Shown here: positions 1,757 through 35,095 of the stretch, one piece after another
How the letters are laid out: each line of letters opens with the position of its first letter
Numbering within the stretch: the first letter of the stretch is position 1
NCBI GenBank assembly: GCA_036384015.1
Contig: DASVNF010000232.1
Location: forward strand, 1-48,495
Direction of reading: 5' to 3'
Source of the DNA: Burkholderiales bacterium
Lineage (GTDB): Bacteria > Pseudomonadota > Gammaproteobacteria > Burkholderiales > JACQAP01
DNA length: 48,495 nt
Position numbers and translations under genes: made by a program
Notes under the pieces: model-generated
Seen by the model: the letters and a program-made list of their open reading frames with translations, nothing else
The model's database searches: none
Told to the model about the DNA's origin: nothing

Positions 1757-2910
1757 CGTGTTTTCCTTGAGGGTACCCGCGCCTTGAGCGCGAGCTGTTC
1801 GTGCACTGCCTGGTAGAGACCGATCGCTTGCAGGAAATCCATCATCTTCGCCGCGTTGGCGGGGGCGAGCAGTTGCCGCACGCGCGGCTCGGGCCAGCCG
1901 AGGATTTCGGCCAGCCACCGCGGTCGTTCCGCGTCGGAAATCGCCAGGAAGTCAGGATGCGCCCGGGCGATGCGGCGCAGGCAGGAATCACGCGCGGCAT
2001 CGAGCATGCGTTGTGCGCCGCCGCTGGACCAGAGAAAGCGTCCGCTGGCGCGCAGGTGGTCGAGCAGCCGGCGGCGGTTGCGCGCCGGATCCGGGGCGAT
2101 GGGGCCGAGCCGCGGCGCAACGGACCAGAGCCACAGCAGCAGCAGAACGGCACCTCCCGCCAGCGGCGCCCAGGCATTTTCCTGCAGCCAGTCGCCGAGC
2201 GAGAGCCTGCCGGCGTTGCTGAACAGCAAAACCGGCCTGTCATCGGGAACGATCGAAACCATCTGCCAGAGGAACTGGGCGTGCTGTTCCTCGCCGATGG
2301 ACGGATTGAAGGCGAATTCCAGTTCGTTGAGAACCATGACCAGGCCGTTGCCATGCTCTACCAGCAGCAGGGCCTTGCCGGAGCCGTCGTCGAAATGGTA
2401 TTCGGCAGCCGGCGCCTCCAGGCGCATGCGTCGCGACAGTTGCACCCTCGAGGCCGAGTCGCTTCCCGGCAGCCTCACTTCGACCGGCTCGTTGGAATCC
2501 TTCGAGCCGCGCGGGCGCCTGACGGCATGACGCTGCACGCGCAGCGCCTCGAGCAGGGGATCGGATTGGCCGGGCGGCTCAGCCTCGACGATCAGGTACC
2601 CGCCGTTGGCGACCCACTCCAGGATATCCAGCTGCAACGACTGGCTCAGGATGGTCCGTCGCGCGGGCAGCACCAGGGTCGCCGGTGCCGGCAGGGTTCG
2701 CAGTTCCGGTATGGACCGCAGGGTCGAGGCCTTGGCGCCCAGGCGCAGCAGCAGGCGTTCCGCGGCGAGGAAAGGATTGCGCAGGGCAGGACCGCGATAT
2801 CCCGTATGCACGGTCTCCGTAACCTCCTCGAAATTCCTGAAGAACCAGGCCGCGCCCGCAGCGATTACGGCCAGCAACAGGACGCCGACGAGAACCTGGA
2901 CCCGGCTCAT
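1753..2910 (-). CDS. DUF4350-like membrane-anchored protein
   Basis: ORF 1753..3078 trimmed to MSRVQVLVGVLLLAVIAAGAAWFF... (ATG 2910), which gives an ATGA overlap with the upstream stop at 2907. N-terminal TM helix, a second TM (AVLLLLWLWSV) and a C-terminal helical region are typical of the DUF4350 member of MoxR/DUF58 clusters. Family call is from memory. Confidence 0.6.
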   Translation of the reverse strand: MSRVQVLVGVLLLAVIAAGAAWFFRNFEEVTETVHTGYRGPALRNPFLAAERLLLRLGAKASTLRSIPELRTLPAPATLVLPARRTILSQSLQLDILEWVANGGYLIVEAEPPGQSDPLLEALRVQRHAVRRPRGSKDSNEPVEVRLPGSDSASRVQLSRRMRLEAPAAEYHFDDGSGKALLLVEHGNGLVMVLNELEFAFNPSIGEEQHAQFLWQMVSIVPDDRPVLLFSNAGRLSLGDWLQENAWAPLAGGAVLLLLWLWSVAPRLGPIAPDPARNRRRLLDHLRASGRFLWSSGGAQRMLDAARDSCLRRIARAHPDFLAISDAERPRWLAEILGWPEPRVRQLLAPANAAKMMDFLQAIGLYQAVHEQLALKARVPSRKTR

Positions 2911-4385
2911 GCTTGCGCCTGTCGGGCAAAGTGCAGCGGCCAGTTGTTGCAGAGTTGTTCCACGCCTGCGGGCGCCGGCGTCTGCGCGGCATAGGCCACG
3001 CCCTGCCATGCCGCCACCAGCTCGCGGAAGTAAACCACGCCGGCTTCCGGCAAGGAGGCGCCCGCGGCGCGCACGCAATCGCCCTCCGTATATCCCGCGA
3101 GCAACGGAATTTCGTACCTGTGGACCAGCGCGGAAAGGGCGCCGCGATACAGGAGGGACAACGCTTCCCGCATGCGCCCCTCACGGGCCGCCGCCGCCGC
3201 CGCGGCGGCAACGTCTTCAGGCAGGGATTCAGGCGCGACATCGAGGCCGAACAACGCGTCCGGCGGCCGGTAGGCCTGCCTGCGCAGGCGCGGCTCGGGC
3301 ATGAACCGGCGCAACGCATACAGGATCAGCAGAAGCGCAACGATCGCCAGCACCCAGAGCAGGCCCTGCGAAATGTCCGAAATGAACCGGATGAAATTGA
3401 TCATCGAGTCGGAGATCGTGCGCGGCTTGCCTTCCGGCTGGTCGAACTCGCCGATGTAGCGCCAGCGCTTCACCTCGCGTTCCGAACCGAAGTCGGGACT
3501 GGCGAGGACCTCGGCGATTTCGCGTTGCGGGGATTTTGCGCTTTGCTGGGCCATGGCCGGCTGCGGCCCGCCGATTGCAACCGCTGCAGCGGCGGTCACC
3601 GCTAGAAACAGAACCGCCGCCTTTGCCATGCCCCGCAGGCGTTCTTCGAGACGCCGCAACTGCACTTCGATGTCCCAGCCCTCCAGGATGGTGCGGCGGT
3701 TCAGGTATAGCGCGAAACCGGCGGTGACGTAGAACGGCTCGACCAGCGACACGGCCAGCACGTAGTGCAACACGTCCTTGATGCCCCAGGTCGTCATTTC
3801 GCGAAGTGCCGAGCGCATGTCGTCGGCGTAAGCCTCGTCGGGCACCAGGTCTGCTGCCGAGGGTTCGAGCATGGCAAGGACGACAAGCGTCGCAAACAGG
3901 GCAACCCCTTCAATGCTCTGGCAGACCACTGTTAGCCAGACGGCGTTCCCCCGGGTACGCACGCCCAGCGCGTTGCGCCTTTTTCGCGCCGCGGATCCGG
4001 ACTGTTTCTCCAGCGTCGACACCGGCAGCATGAACGAGCGCGCGAAATCGAAGCGGCCGAACGTCAGCGAACCGATCAGTCCCGGCCGCAACCATTCCCC
4101 GGACGCGCGGAGCGTCGCCATGACGCCGCATTCCTCGCCGAAGACGGCGCGGCTGGCGGCATGCAGCACCGCCCGATCGAACAGCGGCTTCAGCCACAAC
4201 AACACCAGCACGGCGTAGAACTTGTTCTGGAAAACGATCAGGAGCAACGCCGCCGCCGGCAGGTAAAGCGCCAGCCAGACACCCCAGATCGGCCGCCACC
4301 ATGCGCGCGCCATCTGGAAGCCCAGATCCAGGGCCTCCCATTGCGAACGTGGCCGCAGCGCCACCGCGATGCGGTCAAGTTCCAC
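2907..4385 (-). CDS. Multi-pass membrane protein with C-terminal DUF4129-like domain
   Basis: GTG start at 4385 (MELDRIAVALRPRSQWEALDLGF...). Several TM segments. C-terminal block LSLLYRGALSALVHRYEIPLLAGYTEGDC resembles DUF4129. Overlaps the upstream gene end by 11 nt. Confidence 0.6.
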   Translation of the reverse strand: MELDRIAVALRPRSQWEALDLGFQMARAWWRPIWGVWLALYLPAAALLLIVFQNKFYAVLVLLWLKPLFDRAVLHAASRAVFGEECGVMATLRASGEWLRPGLIGSLTFGRFDFARSFMLPVSTLEKQSGSAARKRRNALGVRTRGNAVWLTVVCQSIEGVALFATLVVLAMLEPSAADLVPDEAYADDMRSALREMTTWGIKDVLHYVLAVSLVEPFYVTAGFALYLNRRTILEGWDIEVQLRRLEERLRGMAKAAVLFLAVTAAAAVAIGGPQPAMAQQSAKSPQREIAEVLASPDFGSEREVKRWRYIGEFDQPEGKPRTISDSMINFIRFISDISQGLLWVLAIVALLLILYALRRFMPEPRLRRQAYRPPDALFGLDVAPESLPEDVAAAAAAAAREGRMREALSLLYRGALSALVHRYEIPLLAGYTEGDCVRAAGASLPEAGVVYFRELVAAWQGVAYAAQTPAPAGVEQLCNNWPLHFARQAQA

Positions 4386-22786: not shown

Positions 22787-23353
22787 TCACCGGAAAAAAT
22801 ACAGGACGGCCAGGAGGATGAGGATTCCGCCCAGGGCCCACAACCACCCCGGCACCGTCGCGCGATGCGCAACCGGGGCGGCTTCCGGCAATGCCGCGGC
22901 CGGCACCGCCCCCGCTGGCGCAACCGTGCTGTTGAAGCGCGCGAAGAAGTCGTCGGACATCTTTTTCGCCACGCCGTCGATCAGGCGCGATCCGATCTGC
23001 GCCAGCTTGCCGCCGACGCTTGCTTTGGCCTTGTAGGTCAGCAGCGTATCGCTGCCGTCCGGCCGCAGGGCGACTTGCGCCGTTCCCTTGCCGAATCCAG
23101 CCGCGCCCCCCGAGCCTTCGAACGCGAGCGAATAGGAGTTCGGCGGATCCAGGTCCGACAACAGCAGCTTGCCGCTGAATTTCGCCTTCACCGGGCCGAC
23201 CGCTGCGATCATCGCCACCTTGTATTCATTGTCGGAAACCCGCTCGATGCTTTCGCAGCCCGGGATGCAGGCCTTGAGGATCTCCGGATCGTTAAGCGCC
23301 TCCCAGACACGTTGTTGCGCAAGAGGGATCCGTTGCTCGCCGCTCATTTCCAT
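22787..23353 (-). CDS. coxG: CoxG-like SRPBCC protein with C-terminal TM anchor
   Basis: 188 aa. MEMSGEQRIPLAQQRVWEALNDPEILKACIPGCES... is CoxG-like. The C-terminal WLWALGGILILLAVLYFF is a hydrophobic anchor. Confidence 0.8.
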   Translation of the reverse strand: MEMSGEQRIPLAQQRVWEALNDPEILKACIPGCESIERVSDNEYKVAMIAAVGPVKAKFSGKLLLSDLDPPNSYSLAFEGSGGAAGFGKGTAQVALRPDGSDTLLTYKAKASVGGKLAQIGSRLIDGVAKKMSDDFFARFNSTVAPAGAVPAAALPEAAPVAHRATVPGWLWALGGILILLAVLYFFR

Positions 23354-23491
23354 GGTGGGTCTTCTTTCCTGGATATTCTGATGGGTTCATGCGCCGCGTT
23401 GGGACGGCATTGGGATTATGCGCCCGCTTGGCGGCGTTCAAGCGCGAAATGCGGGGCATGACTGTCACCGCAGTCGGCGATGACAACGACT

Positions 23492-24658
23492 TCATATTTG
23501 CTTGATCGCAGTCGCGCCGGCGGGCCTGGCCAGGGCCCGGGTCAGATCGAGCAGGCTTCCCACGTTGTGGACCGGCAGGAATTCATCGACATGCGGCAGC
23601 ATGGCCTTCACACCGGTGGCGCGTGGTTCGAAGCCCTCGAAACGCAGGAGCGGATTGAGCCAGATCAGCCGGTGGCAGGATTTGTGCAGGCGTTCCATCT
23701 GCTCCGGCAGGTCTTCGCCTGCATCGCGGTCGAGTCCGTCGCTGATCAGCATGACCACCGCGTTCTGTCCGAGTACCCGGCGCGACCAGCGCAGGTTGAA
23801 CTCCTTCAGCGTCGCACCGATGCGCGTGCCGCCTGACCAGTCGGCCGCAGCTTGCGACACCGCGCCGAGCGCCACGTCGACGTCGCGATGCCGGAGATGC
23901 CGCGTTACATTGGTGAGCCGGGTGCCGAAGACGAAGCTGTGCACGCGGTCGCGGTCGTTGGTGATGGCGTGCAGGAAATGCAGGAACATGCGCGAATAGC
24001 GGCTCATGGAGCCTGAGATGTCGCAAAGCACGACCAGTGGCGGAGGGCGGCGGCGATGCGAGCGGCGGCGCAGCGGGATGATGTCGGCGTTCCCGCGCAA
24101 TCCGGCACGCAGGCTCGCGCGCAGGTCCACCTGTCTGCCATGCGGGTCGGGATGCAGGCGCCGCGTGCGGATCTGCGGGATCGGCAGGCGCAGTCCGGCG
24201 ATCAGGCGCTTGGCCTGTTCCAGCTCTTCGGCGGTCATGGTCTCGAAATCCTGTCGCTGCAGGCGCTCGATTTCGGAGGCGCTCAGCGCGGCGTCGGGCT
24301 CCACGTCCTGCTTTTCCGCCCGCATCGCCACTTTCCTGGTAAGGCCGAGGGCTTCGGCAATGCGGTTCGGGGTCTGGTCCTGCGGGTTCTTCGCCGGCGT
24401 GGCCTGCCCGGATTGCAGCAAAGCGCGGTCGAGCAGATGGCGTTCGCGCCAGAACAGGCGGAAGGCCTGGTCGAACAGTTCGAACTGCTCGTGCCGGGAA
24501 AGGAACACCGACGCCAGCGTCCAGTAGAAGTCCTCCCGCTTCTCGATGCCGGCAAGCTCCAGCGCTCGCAGGCCATCCAGCACCCGATCAGGCCCGACCG
24601 GCACGCCCGCTTTGCGCAGCGCGCGGGCGAAGTGGACAACGTTCTCAGCGAGGTTCAT
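23492..24658 (-). CDS. coxE: VWA domain protein, CoxE family
   Basis: 388 aa. It has a CoxE-like N-terminus (FARALRKAGVPVG). The C-terminal VWA domain has a MIDAS-like LCDISGSM and WLNPL. Confidence 0.85.
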   Translation of the reverse strand: MNLAENVVHFARALRKAGVPVGPDRVLDGLRALELAGIEKREDFYWTLASVFLSRHEQFELFDQAFRLFWRERHLLDRALLQSGQATPAKNPQDQTPNRIAEALGLTRKVAMRAEKQDVEPDAALSASEIERLQRQDFETMTAEELEQAKRLIAGLRLPIPQIRTRRLHPDPHGRQVDLRASLRAGLRGNADIIPLRRRSHRRRPPPLVVLCDISGSMSRYSRMFLHFLHAITNDRDRVHSFVFGTRLTNVTRHLRHRDVDVALGAVSQAAADWSGGTRIGATLKEFNLRWSRRVLGQNAVVMLISDGLDRDAGEDLPEQMERLHKSCHRLIWLNPLLRFEGFEPRATGVKAMLPHVDEFLPVHNVGSLLDLTRALARPAGATAIKQI

Positions 24659-24671
24659 TCAGATCAAAGTC

Positions 24672-24829
24672 CATCACAGAGATACAGAGGATACAGAGGA
24701 AACCAAAGTGGATCGAAAAGCGAATGACACAGTACGCATTTTGCGACCCCGTCAATCGTGATGCCGCTCAAACGCCAGTTAGTTGTTCCCCGTTCTCGCC
24801 TTCAGTTTTTCTCTGTGTCGTCTGTGAGG
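24672..24829. repeat. Hairpin repeat copy F (unit ACAGAGG)
   Basis: The left arm is CATCACAGAGATACAGAGGATACAGAGGAAACC. The reverse complement of the right arm is CCTCACAGACGACACAGAGAAAAAC. AGATCTAAG, which contains the coxL stop codon, follows directly. Confidence 0.7.
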
Positions 24830-24834
24830 AAGAT

Positions 24835-27138
24835 CTAAGCAGCCTGGGACTTATTGATCGCCCGCCAGACCTTCTCGGGCGTTGCGGGCATTTCGATCTG
24901 TTTTACGCCCAAAGGACGCAGGGCATCGATCACGGCGTTCATGACGGTGGGCGTGCCGCCGACCGTGCCGAGTTCGCCGACGCCCTTGGCGCCGAGGGGA
25001 TTGATCTTGCAGGGCGTGGTTTCGTCAGTGAAGGTGGTGAAATTGGGCAGGTCGTCAGCGCGCGGCAGGCAGTAATCCAGCAGCGAACCGGTGACCAGCT
25101 GGCCGCTCTCGGGATCGTAGTGGGTGTTTTCCAGCAGCGCCTGGCCGACGGCCTGCGCGATGCCGCCATGCACCTGGCCGGCAACGATCAGGGGGTTGAT
25201 GACACGACCCACGTCGTCGACCGTCGTGTAGCGCACGATCCGGGTGACGCCGGTTTCCGGATCGATCTCCACTTCGCAGACGTGGCAGCTGTTCGGCCAG
25301 GAAGGTCCGTCCACTTTTTGCAGGGTCGTGATGGCAATGCGCTTTTCCGGCTGCTTGGCGGCGAGGTAGAACAGACCGATGTCCAGGTCCGTTCCGGCCA
25401 CTTTGAATCGACCGTCGCGGTATTCGATGTCCTGGCCCGCGGCTTCCAGTGCGTCGGCGGCAAGCTGCCGGCCTTTTTCAATAGTCTCCTTTGACGCGGT
25501 CAGCATCGCCGAGCCGCCGATGTACAGCGAGCGGCTGCCCATGCTGCCGATGCCCTGGGCGATGTCGCTGTCGCCCTGGACGATGACGATGCGATCCGGG
25601 TCGATATCAAGGGTTTCGGAAATGATCTGCACATAGCTGGTCTCGATGCCCTGGCCCATCGCCTGCATCGCCGTATAGACGAGCACCCTGCCATCGGCCT
25701 CGATGTGCAGGTTGACGGTTTCCTCGTGCACCACGCCCGTCCATTCCAGGAACGTGGACAGGGCCCTGCCGCGCAGCCTGCCGCGCTTCTTGGATTCGTC
25801 GCGGCGCGCGGGATAACCCTTCCAGTCCGCGGCTTCGAGGATGCGATCGAGCATGTGCGGGAAATTGCCGCTGTCGAATTTCTCGCCCATCGGGGTCTTG
25901 TAGGGCATTTGCGAGGGCTGGATGAAATTGCGCCTGCGCAGTTCCGCCGGATCCATTTTCATCTCCGCCGCCGCCTGATCCATCAGGCGTTCGAGCAGGT
26001 AAATGGCTTCCGGCCTTCCGGCGCCGCGATAGGCGCCAACCAGGTTGGTGTTGGTCATCACGGCGGTGCCGCGCAGATGCAGCGCCGGAACATGGTAGAC
26101 GCCGGTGATGACCTTGGGCCCGACCGCAACGACGATCACCGCGCCCGGACCCGTGGCATGAGCACCGATGTTGCCGATGATGTTTACGCGCAAACCGAGG
26201 ATCTTGCCTTCCGCATCGAAGGCCAGTTCCGCCTCGTTGATCTGGTCGCGGCCGTGGTTGCCGCCGAGGAATTCCTCGCTGCGGCTGGCGCGCCAATGCA
26301 CGGCGCGCTTGAGCTTGCGCGCAGCCCAGGCGCACACCACGTCCTCGGCGTACAGCTGCGTCTTCATGCCGAAGCCGCCGCCGACATCGCCGACGACGAC
26401 GCGCACGTCCTTCATCGGAACCTTCAGGCAGCCTTCGGCCAGCGTCTTCTGCAATCCGGCGGGGTTCTGGCAACTGGTACGCAGAATGGTGCGTCCGGTC
26501 TTCGCATCGAATTCGGCGATGCTGCCGCGCGGCTCCATGCTTACCGGCACCAGGCGCTGGTTGTAGAGGGAGAGCTTGGTGATGTGCTGGGCCTTGGCGA
26601 AAGCGGCGTCGCACAAGTCCTTCTTGCCGAATTCCGTCTGCGCGGCAATATTGCCCGGCGCCTTGTCCCAGAGCAGCGGCGCGCCCTTGGCGATCGCGGC
26701 CGCAATGGTCACGACCGCGGGGAGTTCCTTGTAGTCCACCATCACCTGTTCGGCTGCATCTTCCGCCTGGATGCGGGTCTGGGCGAATACGGCAGCCACC
26801 GGCTCGCCTACATAGCGTGCTGCATCGGTAGCGAGTGCGTAGTGGGGAGCGCCGCACATGGCTTCGCCGTCGGCGCGCTTCAGGCCCGCGCCATCCGGCA
26901 ACGGACCTATCCCGTCGGCAAGCATGTCAGCGCCGGTCAGCACCGCCGCGACGCCCGGCATGGCTTTTGCAGCGCTGGCGTCGATCGAGGCTATTCGGGC
27001 GTGGGCGTGCGGGGAACGCACGAAGGCGACGAAAAGTTCGTTGCCGGCCGCCACGTCATCCACATATTGCCCGGTGCCGAGGAGGAGTCGAAGGTCTTCC
27101 CTGCGGGTCAGCGCCTGACCGATGCCGAACTTTGCCAT
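24835..27138 (-). CDS. coxL: Molybdopterin-binding large subunit of a xanthine-dehydrogenase-family enzyme, form-II CoxL-like
   Basis: 767 aa. The active-site loop AYRGAGR is encoded at 26014-26034, checked by translating the reverse strand. That is the form-II signature, not the AYxCSFR of bona fide CO dehydrogenases. Confidence 0.9.
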
Positions 27139-27337
27139 GCTTTATCCTTTTTCTATCAGTGTGCGCCGCGAACGGGGATTGAAGTCCGGGCGCTGCTATT
27201 TGGGCAATGTCCGGGAATTTTACGCCAGCCTTCCGGCGGACGTCCGGTCCGCTTTCGGTTGTGTCAGGGGCTGTGGTTGTCTAGGATTCCGGTTTGGCCG
27301 GCAATGCCGGCGTTCACCGTCGAAGAAGGGAAGACCC

Positions 27338-27802
27338 ATGCCAGTCCGGTTGACCATGACCGTAAACGGAAAGCCCGTGAGCGCGGAAGTCGAGCCGCGC
27401 CTGCTGCTGGTGGATTTCATCCGGGACACGTTGCGCCTCACCGGCACGCACATCGGCTGCGATACTGCCCAATGCGGCGCCTGTACGATCCACATGAACG
27501 GAAATGCGGTGAAATGCTGCAACATGCTGGCGGTCCAGGCGCAGGGCGCCCAGATCGTTACCATTGAAGGCCTCGCCAAGGCCGACGGCACCATGCATCC
27601 GATGCAGGCGGCATTCCGCGATCACCATGGCCTGCAGTGCGGCTATTGCACCCCCGGCATGGTGATGAGCGCGCTGGACCTGGTAAAGCGGCATCCCAAT
27701 CCCAGCGAAGAGACGATTCGCGCGGAACTCGATGGCAACCTGTGTCGCTGCACCGGTTACCACAACATCGTCAAAGCCGTGCAAGCCGGCGCCAAGGCCT
27801 GA
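27338..27802 (+). CDS. coxS: (2Fe-2S)-binding small subunit, CoxS-like
   Basis: ORF 27122..27802 trimmed to [14 protein letters not shown]... (ATG 27338), with GAAGGGAAG upstream. [10 protein letters not shown] and CGYCTPGM...CRCTGY cluster motifs. Confidence 0.9.
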
Positions 27803-27813
27803 GGCATTATGCC

Positions 27814-27861
27814 CAACGCAAAGCGTTGCGACCTTCGCGTTCTTCGCGCCTTGCGTTGAGG
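27814..27861. repeat. Compact hairpin-repeat copy I (unit GCAAAGG/GCGAAG) in the coxS-coxM spacer
   Basis: CAACGCAAAGCG pairs with CGCCTTGCGTTG. The right arm CCTTCGCGTTCTTCGCGCCTTGCGTTGAGG has the same unit style as copy H. There is no separate core. Confidence 0.45.
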
Positions 27862-27880
27862 TTTAACTGAGGGTTAGAAC

Positions 27881-28684
27881 ATGCATGAATTCAATTATCA
27901 CAAGGCGTCGAGCGTCGCGGACGCCGCCGCAAGGATCGCCTCCTCCTCCGATGGCAAGCTGCTCGCCGGGGGACAAACACTGATTGCCGCCATGAAAATG
28001 CGCCTTGCGGCGCCGGCGGATATCGTCGACCTCGGCGGGATCGCCGACTTGCGGGGCATCAAGGTCGAAGGCGGCGGCATCGTAGTCGGCGCCATGACCA
28101 CCCATGCCGAGGTTTCCGCGTCGAAGGACGTGCAGAAGGCCATTCCGGCGCTTGCGGTTCTGGCCGGCAGCATCGGGGACCGCATGGTCCGCAATATGGG
28201 CACGCTCGGCGGATCAGTCGCCAACAATGATCCCGCGGCGGACTATCCCGCGGCCCTGGTGGCTTTGGGCGCTACGGTCATTACCAGCAGGCGCAAGCTC
28301 GCGGCGGACCAGTTTTTCACCGGCATGTACGAAACCGCGCTGGAAACCGGCGAGATCATCACCTCGGTCTCATTTCCGGTACCCAAGCGCGCCGGCTACA
28401 TGAAATTCAAGAACCCGGCATCGCGTTACGCGATGGTCGGCGTATTCGTGGCTGACACGGCAAGCGGCGTCCGCGTTGCCGTCACCGGCGCGGGCCCCAG
28501 CGTATTTCGCGTGGCTGATATGGAGAAGGCCCTGGCCAAGTCGTTTTCTCCAGATGCGGCCGCCAATGTGAAAGTCTCCGCGAACGGCTTGAACACCGAC
28601 ATCCACGCCAGTGCCGAATATCGCGCGCATCTGGTCTCGGTAATGGCGAAGCGCGCGGTGGAGCAGGCTCTTGCCGGAAAATAA
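27881..28684 (+). CDS. coxM: FAD-binding medium subunit, CoxM-like
   Basis: 267 aa. LLAGGQTLIAAMKMRL, GGSVANNDPAADYP and a CO-dehydrogenase flavoprotein C-terminal domain. Confidence 0.9.
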   Translation: MHEFNYHKASSVADAAARIASSSDGKLLAGGQTLIAAMKMRLAAPADIVDLGGIADLRGIKVEGGGIVVGAMTTHAEVSASKDVQKAIPALAVLAGSIGDRMVRNMGTLGGSVANNDPAADYPAALVALGATVITSRRKLAADQFFTGMYETALETGEIITSVSFPVPKRAGYMKFKNPASRYAMVGVFVADTASGVRVAVTGAGPSVFRVADMEKALAKSFSPDAAANVKVSANGLNTDIHASAEYRAHLVSVMAKRAVEQALAGK

Positions 28685-29594
28685 ACAGGCGCTGCCTCAG
28701 TCCATCGACGCAACCCTTGAGCTGTTGGCGCGCGGCGAATACGTCGCGGAACGTTCGCTTGCCACCGCCGTGTTCCTCGCCCTGCGCATGGGCCGGCCGC
28801 TGTTCCTCGAAGGCGAAGCCGGCGTCGGCAAGACCGAGATTGCCAAGGTCCTTTCCGGCACACTGGGCCGGCCGCTGATCCGCTTGCAATGCTACGAGGG
28901 CCTGGACATCGCCTCGGCGGTGTACGAATGGAATTATCCGAGGCAGATGATCGAGATTCGCCTGGCGGAAGCGGGCGGCGCGGGTTCCAAGGAAAGCCTG
29001 GAGAAGGACATCTTCAGTGAACGCTTCCTGATCCGCCGTCCGTTGCTGCAGGCGCTGGATTCTTCGAATGGCGAGCCTCCCGTGCTCCTGATCGACGAAC
29101 TGGACCGCACCGACGAGCCGTTCGAGGCCTACCTGCTGGAAGTCCTGGCGGATTTTCAGGTGACCATTCCCGAGATCGGCACCATCAGGGCGGCGCAGCC
29201 GCCGATCGTCATCATCACGTCGAACCGCACGCGTGAAATCCATGACGCGGTGAAGCGTCGTTGCCTCTACCATTGGGTGGACTATCCCGTCGCGGCACGC
29301 GAACTCGAGATCGTCAAGCGCAAGGCCCCCCGGGTTGCCGAAAAGCTGTCGGGGGAGGTCGTGGCTTTCGTGCAGAAGCTGCGGGCCATGGACCTTTTCA
29401 AGCGCCCCGGTATAGCCGAGACGATCGATTGGGCCAAAGCCCTGGTCGAACTGGACCGCCAGTCGCTGGATGCGGGCACAGTCAACGATACCCTCGGCGT
29501 GCTGCTCAAGTACCAGGACGACATTTCCGCCGTGCGCGGCAGCGAGGCGGCGCGCATCCTCGAGGAAATCCGGGCCGAAGTCGCTGCGCACTGA
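28671..29594 (+). CDS. coxD: MoxR-class AAA+ ATPase, CoxD-like
   Basis: 307 aa. Walker A GEAGVGKT and Walker B LLIDELDR. TTG start at 28671 overlaps the coxM end by 14 nt, so the start is uncertain. Confidence 0.85.
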   Translation: MPENKQALPQSIDATLELLARGEYVAERSLATAVFLALRMGRPLFLEGEAGVGKTEIAKVLSGTLGRPLIRLQCYEGLDIASAVYEWNYPRQMIEIRLAEAGGAGSKESLEKDIFSERFLIRRPLLQALDSSNGEPPVLLIDELDRTDEPFEAYLLEVLADFQVTIPEIGTIRAAQPPIVIITSNRTREIHDAVKRRCLYHWVDYPVAARELEIVKRKAPRVAEKLSGEVVAFVQKLRAMDLFKRPGIAETIDWAKALVELDRQSLDAGTVNDTLGVLLKYQDDISAVRGSEAARILEEIRAEVAAH

Positions 29595-29612
29595 ATGTGG
29601 GACCTACACCCT

Positions 29613-29762
29613 TTCACCGCAGAGGCGCAGAGGACGCAGAGAAAAACCAATGACAATACGTGAGACGTCGTATTGGCACACCGGCAGGCAAGCGCCTGCC
29701 ACGAGCGTTGAACCAGTCTGACCCTGGATCTTGTTTTCCTCTGTGTCCTCTGTGCGTGGTGG
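29613..29762. repeat. Hairpin repeat copy G (unit GCAGAGG / ACAGAGG)
   Basis: The left arm is TTCACCGCAGAGGCGCAGAGGACGCAGAGAAAAACCAA. The reverse complement of the right arm is CCACCACGCACAGAGGACACAGAGGAAAACAAG. The core contains two further perfect 7-bp hairpins (29654-29675 and 29683-29700). Confidence 0.8.
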
Positions 29763-29782
29763 ATGGAAAGATGCAGAAGGGT

Positions 29783-29816
29783 GAAAAAAAAGCCCCGGCA
29801 AGCCGGGGCTTTTTTG
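29783..29816. terminator. Bidirectional intrinsic terminator
   Basis: An A-run, then stem AGCCCCGG (29791-29798), loop CAAG, stem CCGGGGCT (29803-29810), then a T-run. It lies between the convergent coxD transcript and the 40-aa gene. Confidence 0.8.
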
Positions 29817-29832
29817 GTGTGTTCCGGGTGGA

Positions 29833-29955
29833 TTACTTGTACTTCGCCCAGAGTTCCTCATTGAGTTTCGCCTGTTCCTTGCCGAGAGACATCACCCAGT
29901 AGAGGCAGCCGATGACGACGGTGAGCGGACCCAGAAGCAGAATTGCGGAAGTCAT
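29833..29955 (-). CDS. Small membrane protein, 40 aa (below ORF-track cutoff)
   Basis: The reverse-strand translation is MTSAILLLGPLTVVIGCLYWVMSLGKEQAKLNEELWAKYK*. TAGGAGT lies 7 nt upstream of the ATG. The gene has GC-rich third positions. The strong terminator starts 17 nt after its stop. Confidence 0.6.
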   Translation of the reverse strand: MTSAILLLGPLTVVIGCLYWVMSLGKEQAKLNEELWAKYK

Positions 29956-30116
29956 GCCTTGTTACTCCTATTTTTGGGAAGAGTCGCCGAAGGTCGCGAC
30001 AGGCTAAGCGGAGCTTTTGGCTCGGGCCTGAATAAGACCGGGAAGCACGGCGGCGGCGAATGATACCCGATACGCGGACGGAAGTTGCTGCAGTTTGTTA
30101 CGGCAGGGTGAGCCCC

Positions 30117-30303
30117 CAACCGCAAAGGCGCGAAGACGCAAAGGGGTCGCAAAGAAAGGCAATGAAAACCGGGAAGGAGCGCGGATCATCATTCGCGCGA
30201 CTATTGTCGCTGGTGGAATAAAACTCACGCAGACTACCCATCACGCCGTTTTTTTTGTCCTCCTGTGCGCTTCCTTCGCGTCCTTTGCGCCTTTGCGGTG
30301 AGG
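30117..30303. repeat. Hairpin repeat copy H (units GCAAAGG/GCGAAG)
   Basis: The left arm is CAACCGCAAAGGCGCGAAGACGCAAAGGGGTCGCAAAGAAAGGCAATG. The reverse complement of the right arm is CCTCACCGCAAAGGCGCAAAGGACGCGAAGGAAGCGCACAGGAGGAC. The right arm ends 6 nt before the stop of the DpgC-like gene. Confidence 0.8.
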
Positions 30304-30309
30304 TTGACT

Positions 30310-31728
30310 CTAAAGCTTGCGGCTCTTGGCGTTCCAGTGCATTTCGAGGTTGGAGATCAGCGCCGGGCTGAAATGGCAGTAGGCCTGTTCGAGCGCGTAG
30401 GTGGCGAAGTAACGGCGGAACAGGTCGAGGGGCTCCTGGGATACGCGCATGGCGCGCCGGTTCGAGGCCGAGCTGACGACGCCCGACCCGGTGAAATTTT
30501 CGACTACACGGTCGATCGCCGCATCCATGTCGCCGGGGTCGACGATTTCATCGCAGATCAGCATGCCTTCCGGGCTGTCGCATTCGAGCCGGCGCTGGTA
30601 CATGATCGCCTGGCGTGCGATGCGTTCACCCGTGAAGCGGGGCAGGCGCATGTTGGCCGCGCCGGGGATGATGCCTTCCTTGCGCGCGGGCAAGCTGAGA
30701 AACGCACCGCGCGCGGCCAGTACATAGTCCATGGTCAGCAGGTACTGGCAGTGCCCGCCGATGGCGAACTCCTCCACCACGCTGATCCAGGGTTTTTCGA
30801 TGGTCTGTCCGTGGACGTCGTCGGGCACCATGTTTTCACGCGCCACGCCGCGGTAGAACTTGTTGACGATGCCCAGGTCGCGCTGCAGGTACCAGATGAA
30901 TGGGATCTTGCCGTAGTAAAGGTGCGTCAGGTTGATGCCGCTGCCGAGCATGCGACGGCCGTCGTACTTGCCCCCTTGCACAGGGTCACCGCGCAACACG
31001 CCGATCTGCGTGTCGGGATCGAGGATCGCGATGTCGACCGCGATTTCCGCCGCATCGATCGTGGTGTCGTCTTCTGCGTTCAGGTGGCGCGGATTCTTCT
31101 GGATCACATAGGCAGCGTTGCCTTTGCGGAAAATCTCGGCCGCGCCGAGGTCCAGCCGGCCGCTGCCGCGGAATTCGGGCAGCCGTTCGATCGCCTCCGG
31201 GCGGGGCAGCAGCATGGCGTGGCAAAGGTGCATTCCCGTCTCGGCGTTGGCCAGCACGCTGCTGACGAAGATGCCCTGGTCGATCTCGAACCCGTCCTTG
31301 TCACGCTGCATCAGCGCCGATTCGATGTCGACCTGGGCCTGGGTGGGGGTCAACCCCGGGACCAGGGCGGCGGCGTCATAAATAAGGTTCTCGACGCGCA
31401 CGAACTTTGAACGGTTGCGCGTGAGCTTGTCGTAGACCACCATCGCATGCGCGCGAAGGAAGGCGGTGCGCGCCTCGCGCGCAACCCGCTTGATCTGCTC
31501 CGCGGCTTCCGCCTGCAAGGCGTCGCGCGCGGGCTTCGCCGGCAGCCTCGCCAGGATCTGTGCGCTGGTCTGCCAGAAACGGGAATAACGAATGCAATCG
31601 CCGGCGAAATCGGCGGTATCGGCCGGGGCCGTCGCATGCCAGGCTTCGATCGCGTCATCGCTGATCTGCGCACGGCGCAGGCTTTCGGTTTCCTGAACGA
31701 GGGGTTTGATTGCGGGTGCCGCCACCAT
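30310..31728 (-). CDS. Crotonase-fold protein resembling DpgC, the cofactor-independent (3,5-dihydroxyphenyl)acetyl-CoA 1,2-dioxygenase
   Basis: 472 aa. An N-terminal helical region of about 200 aa precedes an enoyl-CoA hydratase-like core. That core includes LNAEDD...AVDIAILD...GVLRG, GSGINL, KPWISVVEEFAIGGHCQYLL and SLPARKEGIIPGAANMRL. The domain layout and motifs match my recollection of DpgC. AAAGGAG overlaps the paaK stop. Confidence 0.55.
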   Translation of the reverse strand: MVAAPAIKPLVQETESLRRAQISDDAIEAWHATAPADTADFAGDCIRYSRFWQTSAQILARLPAKPARDALQAEAAEQIKRVAREARTAFLRAHAMVVYDKLTRNRSKFVRVENLIYDAAALVPGLTPTQAQVDIESALMQRDKDGFEIDQGIFVSSVLANAETGMHLCHAMLLPRPEAIERLPEFRGSGRLDLGAAEIFRKGNAAYVIQKNPRHLNAEDDTTIDAAEIAVDIAILDPDTQIGVLRGDPVQGGKYDGRRMLGSGINLTHLYYGKIPFIWYLQRDLGIVNKFYRGVARENMVPDDVHGQTIEKPWISVVEEFAIGGHCQYLLTMDYVLAARGAFLSLPARKEGIIPGAANMRLPRFTGERIARQAIMYQRRLECDSPEGMLICDEIVDPGDMDAAIDRVVENFTGSGVVSSASNRRAMRVSQEPLDLFRRYFATYALEQAYCHFSPALISNLEMHWNAKSRKL

Positions 31729-31736
31729 TGCTCCTT

Positions 31737-33044
31737 TCAGTTCCGGGTCCGTCTGTCGATGACCCGCACGGCCTTGCCTTGGGAGCGTTGCACCGTGCCG
31801 GGCTCGACCACCCGCACCTTCGTGCTCACGCCGATGAAGCCTTTTATCAGGCGCTCGACCTCCTGCTCGACAGTGTTTCGCGCGACGCTGGACAGGGGCC
31901 CCGGGATCTCCTCCCGCCGTTCGACCAGCACGTCAAGCTCGTCGAGGTGCCCCTCGCGACGGATCTCCAGCACGTAATGCGGCGACAGGCTGGCCTGCTT
32001 GACCACGATTTCCTCGATCTGGGAAGGGAAGACGTTCACGCCGCGAATGATGAGCATTTCGTCGCTACGCCCCGTCACGCGGTTCATGGTGCGCATGCTG
32101 CGCTTGCTGCCCGGGCGCAACAGGGTCAGGTCGCGGGTCCGGTAGCGGATTACCGGCATGCCTACCTTGGTCAGTGAAGTCAGGACCAGTTCCCCGGTCT
32201 CGCCATCGGGCAGCACTTCGCCGCTCAGCGGGTCGATGATTTCCGGAAAGAAATGGTCCTCCCAGATCGTGAGTCCGTCGCGCGTATCGATGCATTCCGC
32301 GGCCACACCCGGTCCGATCACTTCGGAAAGCCCGTACAGATCGAGCGCCGCGATGCCGAAGCGCCTCTCCAGTTCCGCCCGCATGCTTTCGGACCATGGC
32401 TCGGCCCCGAAAATGCCCACCCGCAACGAGGTGTCTGCAGGGTCCAGCCCCTGGCGGGCGAACTCATCGGCGATCACCAGGAGATAGGAGGGCGTGGACA
32501 TGATGATGCCGGGCTTGAAGTCCCGGATCAGCTGCACCTGGCGCTCGGTCATTCCGCCGCTGACGGGGATTACGGTGGCGCCCAGCATTTCCGCACCATA
32601 GTGCGCGCCCAGTCCGCCGGTGAACAGTCCGTAGCCGTAGGCGACGTGCACGATGTCCGTGGAACGCCCCCCGGCTGCGCGCAGCGAGCGCGCCATGACC
32701 GTGGCCCAGGTCTCGATGTCCTGTTTCGTATAGCCGACGACCGTGGGCTTGCCGGTGGTGCCGCTCGACGCATGCACGCGCACGATGTCCTGCATCGGGG
32801 TCGCGAACATTCCGAACGGATAATTGGTCCGCAATTCCGATTTGGAGGTGAAGGGGAACTTCGCCAGGTCCTCCAGATTCCGCAGATCGGCGGGTTTGAC
32901 GCCGGCGGCATCGAACGCGCCGCGGTAATGGGGCACGTTGTCGTAGGCGTGGCGCAGGCTCCATTGCATGCGTTGCAGTTGCAGCTCACGCAGCTCGCCG
33001 ACGCCGGCATTCTCGATCGGTTCGGGCTGGTCCAGCGTAACCAT
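31737..33044 (-). CDS. paaK: Phenylacetate-CoA ligase family protein (PaaK-like)
   Basis: ORF 31737..33191 trimmed to MVTLDQPEPIENAG... (ATG 33044), with AGGAGGAAGG upstream. 435 aa. SSGTTGKPTVVGYT AMP-binding motif and YGLSEVIGPGV. Confidence 0.8.
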   Translation of the reverse strand: MVTLDQPEPIENAGVGELRELQLQRMQWSLRHAYDNVPHYRGAFDAAGVKPADLRNLEDLAKFPFTSKSELRTNYPFGMFATPMQDIVRVHASSGTTGKPTVVGYTKQDIETWATVMARSLRAAGGRSTDIVHVAYGYGLFTGGLGAHYGAEMLGATVIPVSGGMTERQVQLIRDFKPGIIMSTPSYLLVIADEFARQGLDPADTSLRVGIFGAEPWSESMRAELERRFGIAALDLYGLSEVIGPGVAAECIDTRDGLTIWEDHFFPEIIDPLSGEVLPDGETGELVLTSLTKVGMPVIRYRTRDLTLLRPGSKRSMRTMNRVTGRSDEMLIIRGVNVFPSQIEEIVVKQASLSPHYVLEIRREGHLDELDVLVERREEIPGPLSSVARNTVEQEVERLIKGFIGVSTKVRVVEPGTVQRSQGKAVRVIDRRTRN

Positions 33045-33075
33045 TGCGCCTTCCTCCTGGCGTGGAGCCGGTAGT

Positions 33076-34182
33076 TTAATCCCGCAGCAGCTCGCGTACG
33101 TGCCCTGAGATCGCCAGGGACGCCGTAAGGCCCGGCGATTCGATGCCATACAGGCTGACCAGGCCGGCAACACCATGATCTGCCGGCCCATGAATGATGA
33201 AGTCGCCGGCAGGCTCGGAGGGCCCCGCTACCTTCGGCCGGATGCCCGTATACCCCGGCTGCAACTGGCCGTCCTTCAACCCAGGGTAGTACTTGCGGAT
33301 CGCTTCGTAGAACAGCGGTTCGCGCGAATGATCGAAGCTGTAGTCGACGCCGTCCACCCAGCTGACGTCAGGGCCGAATTTTACCTGCCCGCCGAGATCG
33401 ACCGTCACATGCACGCCGAGATGGGCGTGGCTTGCCACCGGATAAACCAGGCGCCGGAACGGCGGTTTTCCCGACAGGGTGTAGTAGTGCGCCTTGGCGA
33501 AGTACTGCGGCGGGATGCTTTGCACCGGCACGCCCCGGACGGACCGGGCAACATCCTGCGCGAACAGGCCGCCGCAATTGACCACCGACTTGCAGAGGAT
33601 GCTCATGGGTTCGTCGCCGCCGACGTTCAGCAAAATGCCGTCGCTGCGGACCTCGCCCGAACGGATCGGGCTCTTGAACACCACGACGGCGCCGCGGTTC
33701 TCAGCGTCGCCCTGGTACGCCAGCATGAGCGCATGGCTGTCGACGATGCCGGTCGATGGGGACAGGAAGCCGGCGACGCATTCCACCGCGGGTTCCAGAT
33801 CGCGCAATTCCTCCCGCGACAGCCAGCGCAGATCACGTACGCCGTTGGCTTCGGATTTCGCCGTGTAACTCTGGAGCGTGGCGATTTCGTCTTGGTCCAC
33901 GGCGACGATTATCTTGCCGATATTGCTGTGGGGCACGCCGCGGTCCGCGCAATAGTCGTAGAGCATCCGCTTGCCGCTCACGCAGAAGCGCGCCTTCAGC
34001 GAACCCGGGGTGTAGTAAAGGCCGGCATGAATGACCTCCGAGTTGCGCGAACTGGTGTGGGTGCCGATGGCCTCCGCGGCTTCGAGTACTATGACTTCAC
34101 GGCCCGCGAGGGCGAGCTCCCGCGCGACGGCGAGTCCGACGACTCCGGCCCCGACCACGGCGCAATCCATTTTTTCGATCAT
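33076..34182 (-). CDS. FAD-dependent oxidoreductase (L-2-hydroxyglutarate oxidase/dehydrogenase-like)
   Basis: 368 aa. The blocks CAVVGAGVVGLAVARELA, SSRNSEVIHAGLYY and LYGIESPGLTASLAI are typical of the LhgO/YgaF-like DAO family. Confidence 0.75.
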   Translation of the reverse strand: MIEKMDCAVVGAGVVGLAVARELALAGREVIVLEAAEAIGTHTSSRNSEVIHAGLYYTPGSLKARFCVSGKRMLYDYCADRGVPHSNIGKIIVAVDQDEIATLQSYTAKSEANGVRDLRWLSREELRDLEPAVECVAGFLSPSTGIVDSHALMLAYQGDAENRGAVVVFKSPIRSGEVRSDGILLNVGGDEPMSILCKSVVNCGGLFAQDVARSVRGVPVQSIPPQYFAKAHYYTLSGKPPFRRLVYPVASHAHLGVHVTVDLGGQVKFGPDVSWVDGVDYSFDHSREPLFYEAIRKYYPGLKDGQLQPGYTGIRPKVAGPSEPAGDFIIHGPADHGVAGLVSLYGIESPGLTASLAISGHVRELLRD

Positions 34183-34246
34183 GACGCTTGTGCTGGCTGG
34201 CTATACTGCAAAAACGCATGGTACCCGAACGCACTCCTGTCCCCGC

Positions 34247-35095
34247 ATGGCCGACTTCTGGAACACCGACTGGCTGACCGGCGAAATGTTCGCGCCGCTG
34301 CGCGCGGCCGGCGCAGGACTGCCGGCGATCGGTTGGCCGGATACCGCGCTGCTCAATTCGCTTGTGGAAGATGCCGGCCGGATCGTCAACGCCCGGGGGC
34401 AACAGTTGCGCTTCGTCGGGCAGGTTGGGAAACCGGAAAGCTTCGAGGAAAGTTTCGAGGTACGCGCGTTCCTGAAGGGCGAAGTGCAGGTACGCCCGCT
34501 CGACTGGCATGACCTGTTCAACGCCCTGGTGTGGATGACCTTCCCGACGGCCAAGGCCGCGATCAATTCGCGGCATTACGAATCGATGGCGGCCGAAGAA
34601 GGCGGGCGGCGTCCTCCGGAGCGCGATGCGCTGACGCTCTTCGACGAAGACGGCATCGTCGTCTTGTCCTCCGATCCGTCGCTGCTGGAAATGATCAGGG
34701 AGTTCCGCTGGAGAGACTTGTTCTGGAATCGGCGCACGGATGTAAGGGAAAACATGCGCTTCTTCCTGTTCGGTCATGCCCTTTATCAAAAGGCGCTGAA
34801 TCCCTTCATCGGCATGACCGGCAAAGGCATCCTGCTGGACGTGCCGGCACCACTCTTCGGCCAGCCGCTTCCGGTGCAGATCGCCGAAACGGACCGCCGG
34901 CTCGCACTGCACGTCTGGGATCGGGGAAGGCTTGGCAAGGGCAGGGATCTGGCGCCGGTTCCCGTGCTCGGCGTGCCAGGCTGGTGGCGGGGCAACGACG
35001 TCGCGGAGTTCTACGACAACACGAACTATTTCCGATCCGGCCGGCGGCCCGATCCGGATCAGGCGCTGCCCGCGCCCGCGCCTTCGTCGATGTAG
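34247..35095 (+). CDS. DUF3025 domain protein
   Basis: ORF 34031..35095 trimmed to MADFWNTDWLTGEMFAPL... (ATG 34247). WHDLFNALVWMTFPTAKAAINSRH and LFGHALYQK blocks resemble DUF3025. Confidence 0.65.
   Translation: MADFWNTDWLTGEMFAPLRAAGAGLPAIGWPDTALLNSLVEDAGRIVNARGQQLRFVGQVGKPESFEESFEVRAFLKGEVQVRPLDWHDLFNALVWMTFPTAKAAINSRHYESMAAEEGGRRPPERDALTLFDEDGIVVLSSDPSLLEMIREFRWRDLFWNRRTDVRENMRFFLFGHALYQKALNPFIGMTGKGILLDVPAPLFGQPLPVQIAETDRRLALHVWDRGRLGKGRDLAPVPVLGVPGWWRGNDVAEFYDNTNYFRSGRRPDPDQALPAPAPSSM

Follow-up and report, generated by a model that had tools for sequence, protein, structure and literature searches.

What does a relative of DpgC, the cofactor-independent dioxygenase of glycopeptide antibiotic biosynthesis, do directly downstream of a phenylacetate-coenzyme A (CoA) ligase in a soil bacterium? 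The question is raised by a contig of 48,495 nucleotides (nt) (DASVNF010000232.1 of assembly GCA_036384015.1, our contig C232), here called the window and taken at its full length, from a soil metagenome-assembled Burkholderiales genome of 3.3 Mb that comprises 239 contigs and is 90% complete. On the minus strand of the window, a flavoprotein gene is followed by genes for a PaaK-type ligase and a DpgC-like protein, which the original prediction had read together as an operon converting arylacetates to arylglyoxylates. Phenylacetate is a hub of aromatic catabolism, linked to phenylalanine, styrene, and lignin- and plant-derived compounds, and bacteria have two textbook routes for it, an aerobic one that uses the PaaABCDE epoxidase and an anaerobic one that uses a molybdoenzyme. 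We consider it reasonably probable that the ligase and the DpgC-like protein form a two-gene module in which phenylacetate, or a close arylacetate, first becomes the CoA thioester and then, with O2, the arylglyoxylate.

A phenylacetate-CoA ligase beside a DpgC-family protein

The ligase gene (31737..33044, minus strand, with its ATG at 33044) encodes 435 amino acids (aa) that carry an AMP-binding domain (PF00501) and an AMP-binding_C_2 domain (PF14535). The protein scored 695.8 bits against the phenylacetate-CoA ligase model TIGR02155, above the cut-off of 646.3, and aligned over its whole length with two Burkholderia cenocepacia structures: the kinetically characterized PaaK2 (PDB 2Y4O, E 1.7e-185), where the C-terminal GK motif was also aligned, and PaaK1 (PDB 2Y27, E 5.5e-179). 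By these profile and structure matches the ligase is a bona fide PaaK of the canonical phenylacetate-CoA ligase clade, as had been proposed, and membership of a non-arylacetate clade is ruled out. It is also the single PaaK in the source genome to score above the TIGR02155 cut-off.

The next gene (30310..31728, minus strand, ATG at 31728) encodes a 472-aa crotonase-fold protein, a putative cofactor-independent arylacetyl-CoA 1,2-dioxygenase. Its best NCBIfam model was DpgC (NF042432), at 410.9 bits across profile positions 3-403 of 412; DpgD was the runner-up at 56 bits, and ordinary hydratases scored lower. Residues 56-453 aligned with residues 26-421 of the solved DpgC chains (PDB 5KAG and 2NP9) at E 1e-95 and about 43% identity, with the N-terminal helical domain included. 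The earlier DpgC-like assignment is borne out: ordinary enoyl-CoA hydratases reached no more than 56 bits and E 1e-8 (the best of their structures gave E 9e-9), compared with 410.9 bits and E 1e-95 for DpgC. Judged by these alignments, the protein is a full-length member of the DpgC family.

The catalytic positions of DpgC are retained. In the alignment, I265 and G325 correspond to Ile235 and Gly296, reportedly the oxyanion-hole positions of DpgC, and R283, E219 and Q328 correspond to Arg254, Glu189 and Gln299, which are said to touch the phenolic hydroxyl of the DpgC substrate; DpgC is also said to be weakly active on phenylacetyl-CoA. R283, Q328 and G325 show no variation among 46 diverse relatives, in which E219 is conserved at 90% or more. 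We anchored the DpgC numbering on F315, A329 and the loop 318-322, all named in PMC4618494.

Several lines of evidence separate the protein from DpgC proper. Its score falls below the NF042432 equivalog cut-off of 530 bits, whereas a true DpgC representative (P0142) reached 576. A tree of 69 family members has a basal split with a support of 99 in the Shimodaira-Hasegawa-like approximate likelihood ratio test (SH-aLRT); P0142 and a PglA/VisG-like protein of Streptomyces virginiae belong to one half, the DpgC half, and the window protein lies in the opposite half, within a 20-member clade (support 98) that holds all PaaK-adjacent proteins. P0142 is encoded in the order DpgD-DpgA-DpgB-DpgC-aminotransferase-MbtH-nonribosomal peptide synthetase (NRPS), and no such context surrounds the window protein. 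The original prediction had noted that the DpgA/B/D polyketide machinery is missing here; it is indeed absent from the neighboring genes, and a search of the 90%-complete source genome for a DpgA-type, type III polyketide synthase (Chal_sti_synt_N) returned no match. By score, phylogeny and context, the window protein is distinct from DpgC itself.

Residues 223, 268, 349, 383, 444, 451, 456, 457 and 460 are fixed in the PaaK-adjacent proteins and unlike those of the DpgC half. N460 replaces the probable Lys428 at the main O2 entry among those described for DpgC (PMC4618494). The family as a whole is large and runs to thousands of protein clusters, with at least 8000 candidates at E <= 1e-20, the best 120 of which are 73-91% identical to the window protein, and 288 clusters at 50% identity and E <= 1e-30. 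In a plasmid collection, the only members came from actinomycetes (DpgC and PglA types) and from Tistrella.

Recurrence of the pair and absence of the epoxidase

A locus search with an alignment of 12 sequences yielded at least 592 genome loci, and we examined the neighborhoods of the best 80, which come from Burkholderiales, Xanthobacteraceae, Pseudolabrys, Reyranella and Stellaceae metagenome-assembled genomes (alpha- and betaproteobacteria). A PaaK homologue (50-82% identity) lies within 8 kb of the DpgC-like gene in 62 of these 80 loci, and the two genes are directly adjacent on the same strand in about 32-36. The arrangement is present in all nine of the nine loci checked from the genus of the source genome. 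Because it recurs throughout those nine loci and in two proteobacterial classes, it is not a chance juxtaposition, and the survey confirms that pairs of this kind recur in other genomes: the conserved unit is the PaaK and DpgC-like pair. On a 406-kb metagenomic contig, a complete PaaK (60% identical) and a DpgC-like domain are joined in a single open reading frame of 863 aa (L138:6001-8592).

Two other apparent fusions were rejected as probable frame errors or merged neighbors: P0271 joins a PaaK N-domain to a DpgC-like part through about 100 unalignable residues, and P0273 joins a truncated thiamine diphosphate enzyme to a DpgC-like part through a low-complexity linker. A protein with AMP-binding and ECH_1 domains (I35_5581), whose ECH_1 part may be DpgC-like, has been reported from B. 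cenocepacia H111 (PMC13186573).

Xanthobacteraceae-type loci have a recurrent set of neighbors. A gene for a TctC-type solute receptor precedes the pair in 20 loci, a UbiD decarboxylase gene follows it in 16, and genes for a UbiX-like flavoprotein, a family III CoA-transferase and a MarR regulator follow it in 7 loci each (examples of neighbor genes at L037:11225-12808, L045:15488-16123, L039:11215-12396, L031:6386-6958 and L050:4157-5155). This set fits the uptake and catabolism of an aromatic acid and hints at a longer pathway.

We then asked whether genomes with the pair also encode the classical ring epoxidase. No PaaA (TIGR02156) in the source genome scored above the cut-off, the best match reaching 92.6 bits against 280. 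At E <= 1e-30, PaaA was found in 0 of 31 genomes of the genus (the source and 30 congeners, 21 of them of high quality) and in 0 of 5 other carrier genomes, including assemblies of 7.2 and 6.0 Mb. BoxB likewise had no match in the source genome. Since the carriers searched lack PaaA, a route separate from paaABCDE, as the original prediction proposed, is plausible.

A literature search found no paper on the pairing or the route. PaaA and PaaC serve as pathway markers in current work, and a 2026 survey of the paa pathway, in which ligases were chosen by PaaA/PaaC context, leaves DpgC unmentioned (PMC13186573). Carriers of the pair are missed by such markers, and genome-based prediction of phenylacetate use would change if the proposed module proves real.

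The source genome contains several genes that might act on the product, all outside the window. A benzoylformate-decarboxylase-like gene on contig C173 scored 422 bits against a cut-off of 493 and sits in an unrelated neighborhood. A benzoate-CoA ligase family gene with an aryl-CoA hydroxylase-like gene next to it, a single 2-oxoacid:ferredoxin oxidoreductase gene (C155) and a single Rieske oxygenase gene (C49) are all unlinked to the pair. We considered the C173, C155 and C49 genes as candidates for the next step and supported none, as they have unrelated neighbors or lie off this contig. A 978-aa open frame at G000:C45:7069-10005 (L129) combines a salicylyl-CoA 5-hydroxylase-like FAD (flavin adenine dinucleotide) monooxygenase part with one from the benzoate-CoA ligase family (527 bits, cut-off 375); it is either a fusion or a pair of genes with no stop codon between them, and a gene for a reductase of the old yellow enzyme type lies nearby (2311-3387). 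These C45 genes may form an aryl-CoA hydroxylation route.

A probable transcription unit and the flavoprotein neighbor

The three open reading frames all lie on the minus strand and have the high third-position GC of real genes. First in the probable transcript is the gene for an FAD-dependent oxidoreductase of the DAO family (33076..34182, 368 aa), whose N-terminal part resembles LhgO. Its TAA stop (33078-33076) is followed by a 31-nt spacer (33045..33075) that contains the ribosome-binding site AGGAGGAAGG and leads to the PaaK start codon. The PaaK stop (TGA, 31739-31737) is separated by 8 nt, AAGGAGCA, from the ATG of the DpgC-like gene. Direct reading of the sequence confirmed the gaps of 31 and 8 nt given by the original prediction. 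The Shine-Dalgarno sequence of the DpgC-like gene, which it described as overlapping the PaaK stop, has an AAGGAG core that abuts this stop and shares with it no more than the final two bases.

Downstream of the DpgC-like gene, a 354-nt spacer (29956..30309, minus strand) leads to a gene for a conserved 40-aa single-helix membrane peptide (29833..29955, minus strand). This is the last gene before an intrinsic terminator, read directly from the sequence (29784..29815, minus strand), that begins 18 nt past the peptide stop codon and consists of an A-tract, a GC stem-loop AGCCCCGG-CTTG-CCGGGGCT and a T-run. A consensus terminator scan listed no terminator-like site between the genes, and the terminator at 29784-29815 was likewise unlisted by that scan; a promoter scan of 29500-34500 detected none. 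The sequencing runs listed were DNA from soil and rhizosphere, with no RNA run among them. The flavoprotein, PaaK and DpgC-like genes are probably, in physical terms, one transcription unit, and we infer that the module is probably co-transcribed with both the flavoprotein gene and the 40-aa peptide gene.

Convergent to this operon is a Cox-like molybdenum hydroxylase cluster (window 22787-29594), with L, E and G on the minus strand and S, M and D on the plus strand. Its best NCBIfam matches are glyceraldehyde dehydrogenase subunits, each below its cut-off. Only the closest relatives (L002 and L017) have the cluster next to the pair, so no functional link is implied.

The flavoprotein had been put forward as a possible member of the pathway, a suggestion that comparison across genomes speaks against. 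The protein matches PF01266 at 208.5 bits and, over residues 6-272 only, the LhgO model NF008726 at a score of 216 bits that falls short of its cut-off, 299; the closest structure is that of an uncharacterized Bordetella pertussis protein (PDB 3DME, E 1.4e-143). Across the order, an orthologue is encoded in 46 of 151 genomes, most of which are without the pair, and the gene adjoins the pair only in the genus and in the six closest of the 80 loci. One genome (G027) has a flavoprotein orthologue and no DpgC-like match, and in two others (G034 and G037) the flavoprotein and DpgC-like genes are on separate contigs.

The usual partners of the flavoprotein gene lie on either side of it. A DUF3025 gene (34247-35095, plus strand) is divergent from it, with 64 nt between the start codons. 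Of 29 Burkholderiales loci, at least 14, from several families, show this divergent adjacency. Short 50-aa matches to DUF3025 were discarded as an artefact of a spurious N-terminal extension of the query, an extension that runs across the flavoprotein gene on the opposite strand. The DUF3025 and flavoprotein genes make up a conserved two-gene unit, or a three-gene unit with the peptide. By tblastn, the 40-aa peptide was found in 7 of 9 genus loci and also in L016, L017, L019, L099 and L106; 12 distinct sequences gave a mean ratio of nonsynonymous to synonymous polymorphism (pN/pS) of 0.32, and the IGCLYWV core is invariant. In L099 and L106, which lack the pair, the peptide gene directly follows the flavoprotein gene, and in L019 the flavoprotein and peptide genes are followed, after 2.3 kb, by PaaK and the DpgC-like gene. 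The last ~115 nt ahead of the peptide gene in the window are homologous to the peptide leader in L099 (blastn of the window against L099, 243-529 against 331-622, 72% identity).

Because the peptide gene elsewhere directly follows the flavoprotein gene, the pair in this genus seems, on the simplest reading, to have been inserted between these two genes, immediately behind the flavoprotein stop. The PaaK and DpgC-like genes are then probably read through from the flavoprotein promoter. This coupling is regulatory and gives no evidence of a shared pathway, and the flavoprotein is probably a pre-existing neighbor and not a dedicated enzyme of the pathway.

Proposed chemistry, alternatives and known systems

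In the proposed module, PaaK would adenylate phenylacetate or a close arylacetate and form the CoA thioester, which the DpgC-like enzyme would hold in a crotonase oxyanion hole built from the backbone NH groups of I265 and G325. The alpha-carbon would lose a proton, and the resulting enolate would react with O2 without a metal or cofactor. Attack of the peroxide on the thioester carbonyl and a dioxetanone-type collapse would then release CoA and the 2-oxo acid, phenylglyoxylate in the case of phenylacetate. The flavoprotein would not be needed for this chemistry. The dioxygenase activity, the substrate, and the downstream steps and fate of the product are what homology and genomic context suggest.

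A number of observations weigh against this scheme. Near the active site, members of the clade differ from the DpgC half: T268 stands in place of Lys238, R349 (within the loop 318-322) in place of Ala320, and N460 in place of the probable Lys428. Eighteen of the 80 loci have no PaaK inside 8 kb. The window holds no dedicated downstream enzyme linked to the pair, and the benzoylformate-decarboxylase-like gene on C173 combines a sub-threshold score with unrelated surroundings. The retained Arg/Glu/Gln triad, the reported phenol contact, could also mean that the substrate is ring-hydroxylated.

This last point leads to the question of substrate, because the same two enzymes might instead act on a ring-hydroxylated or heteroaromatic acid such as 3- or 4-hydroxyphenylacetate, homoprotocatechuate or indole-3-acetate. 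Besides the equivalents of Arg254, Glu189 and Gln299, which are said to bind the phenol in DpgC, such a substrate would suit the UbiD-type and UbiX-like genes that follow the pair in Xanthobacteraceae and that typically serve (hydroxy)aromatic or heteroaromatic acids. B. cenocepacia PaaK1 moreover accepts phenylacetate derivatives (PMC9493321). The window ligase, however, scores above the phenylacetate-CoA ligase cut-off and very closely resembles enzymes that naturally act on phenylacetate, and the triad does not settle the matter because it is conserved family-wide, including in the PglA/VisG-like branch assigned to unsubstituted phenylacetyl-CoA. We regard a hydroxylated or heteroaromatic substrate as unlikely, though worth keeping in mind. 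It is less likely still that the flavoprotein is a dedicated partner in a three-enzyme pathway, feeding the same pool of arylglyoxylate by oxidation of a mandelate-type 2-hydroxy acid or of an amine. The 31-nt gap, the lack of a terminator and the gene order conserved within the genus all fit such a partnership, as does the resemblance of the N-terminal 270 residues to L-2-hydroxyglutarate oxidase/dehydrogenase; set against them are the distribution of the flavoprotein, beside the pair in only the 6 closest of 80 loci and present in many of its 46 genomes without a DpgC-like gene (as in G027) or on a separate contig from it (G034 and G037), and its usual flanks, the DUF3025 and 40-aa peptide genes.

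The remaining alternatives concern the DpgC-like protein itself, which might lack oxygenase activity and serve as a thioesterase, hydratase or isomerase on the acyl-CoA made by the ligase. The crotonase superfamily is mechanistically diverse, the score lies under the DpgC equivalog cut-off, and the clade-specific changes are near the O2 entry sites of DpgC (PMC4618494). We nevertheless consider this quite improbable, given that, at about 43% identity, the protein preserves the complete DpgC architecture along with the active-site residues invariant in the family, and that a ligase paired with a plain thioesterase would run a futile cycle. Every family member that has been characterized or studied genetically is biosynthetic, so the pair could in principle supply an arylglyoxylate for the arylglycine of a natural product, as DpgC and PglA do. 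Yet no aminotransferase, NRPS, MbtH or polyketide synthase gene lies beside the pair here or among the recurrent neighbors in the 80 loci, and the recurrent TctC-type receptor, MarR regulator and decarboxylases suit uptake and catabolism, which makes a biosynthetic role very improbable indeed. We therefore retain the oxidation of phenylacetate, or a close arylacetate, to the arylglyoxylate as the favored function of the pair.

Among known systems, DpgC, the (3,5-dihydroxyphenyl)acetyl-CoA 1,2-dioxygenase of glycopeptide antibiotic producers, shares with the window protein its two-domain architecture, its conserved active-site positions and the chemistry proposed here. Its substrate comes from a polyketide synthase, whereas here it would come from a ligase acting on the free acid, and DpgC has a context of DpgA/B/D, HpgT and NRPS genes that the window protein is without. 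A precedent for an unsubstituted ring is PglA, which is described as oxidizing phenylacetyl-CoA in the biosynthesis of the L-phenylglycine of streptogramin B (PMC7089894): PglA/VisG (S. pristinaespiralis and S. virginiae) belongs to the DpgC family and has unsubstituted phenylacetyl-CoA as its assigned substrate, with benzoylformyl-CoA or phenylglyoxylate as the product. We found that the S. virginiae gene in the pglA/visG position (L137:6920-8317, plasmid NZ_CP107872.1) belongs to the DpgC family and encodes a protein 41% identical to the window protein; downstream of this gene come genes for E1-alpha, E1-beta, a hydrolase, MbtH and an aminotransferase, matching the pristinamycin operon of PMC7089894. 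This protein carries only an enoyl-CoA hydratase/isomerase family annotation, and together with P0148 it makes up a separate branch, sister to the remaining DpgC half. The differences are that PglA/VisG groups with the actinomycete DpgC half and the window protein does not, that the phenylacetyl-CoA for PglA is made from phenylpyruvate by the pyruvate-dehydrogenase-like PglB/C and here by PaaK, and that the genes after PglA, within an NRPS cluster, encode a thioesterase and an aminotransferase.

If our reading is correct, the pair would represent the first catabolic role for the DpgC family, carry cofactor-independent dioxygenation beyond antibiotic biosynthesis into bulk aromatic catabolism, and offer simple enzymes for making arylglyoxylates and arylglycines. 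From the sequences compared here, it is plausible that the locus places a known kind of enzyme in a new metabolic setting and that an oxygen-dependent route from phenylacetate to phenylglyoxylate has gone undescribed. The hybrid paa pathway (PaaK, PaaABCDE and PaaG/Z) has an orthologous PaaK, but here the side chain and not the ring would be attacked. The anaerobic route of Thauera and Aromatoleum proceeds through the ligase PadJ, the phenylacetyl-CoA:acceptor oxidoreductase PadBCD and the phenylglyoxylate:acceptor oxidoreductase PadEFGHI, and it accomplishes the same net conversion of phenylacetate, through phenylacetyl-CoA, to phenylglyoxylate and CoA. PadEFGHI-type genes are not linked to the pair here, where the genome has one unlinked gene of the 2-oxoacid:ferredoxin oxidoreductase type. 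PadBCD is a membrane molybdoenzyme that takes its oxygen from water, whereas the enzyme proposed here would be a soluble, cofactor-free and O2-dependent protein of the crotonase fold. We tentatively suggest, as a possibility that goes beyond the function of the pair itself, that this widespread module could be the missing aerobic counterpart of anaerobic phenylacetyl-CoA alpha-oxidation in soil alpha- and betaproteobacteria without PaaABCDE.

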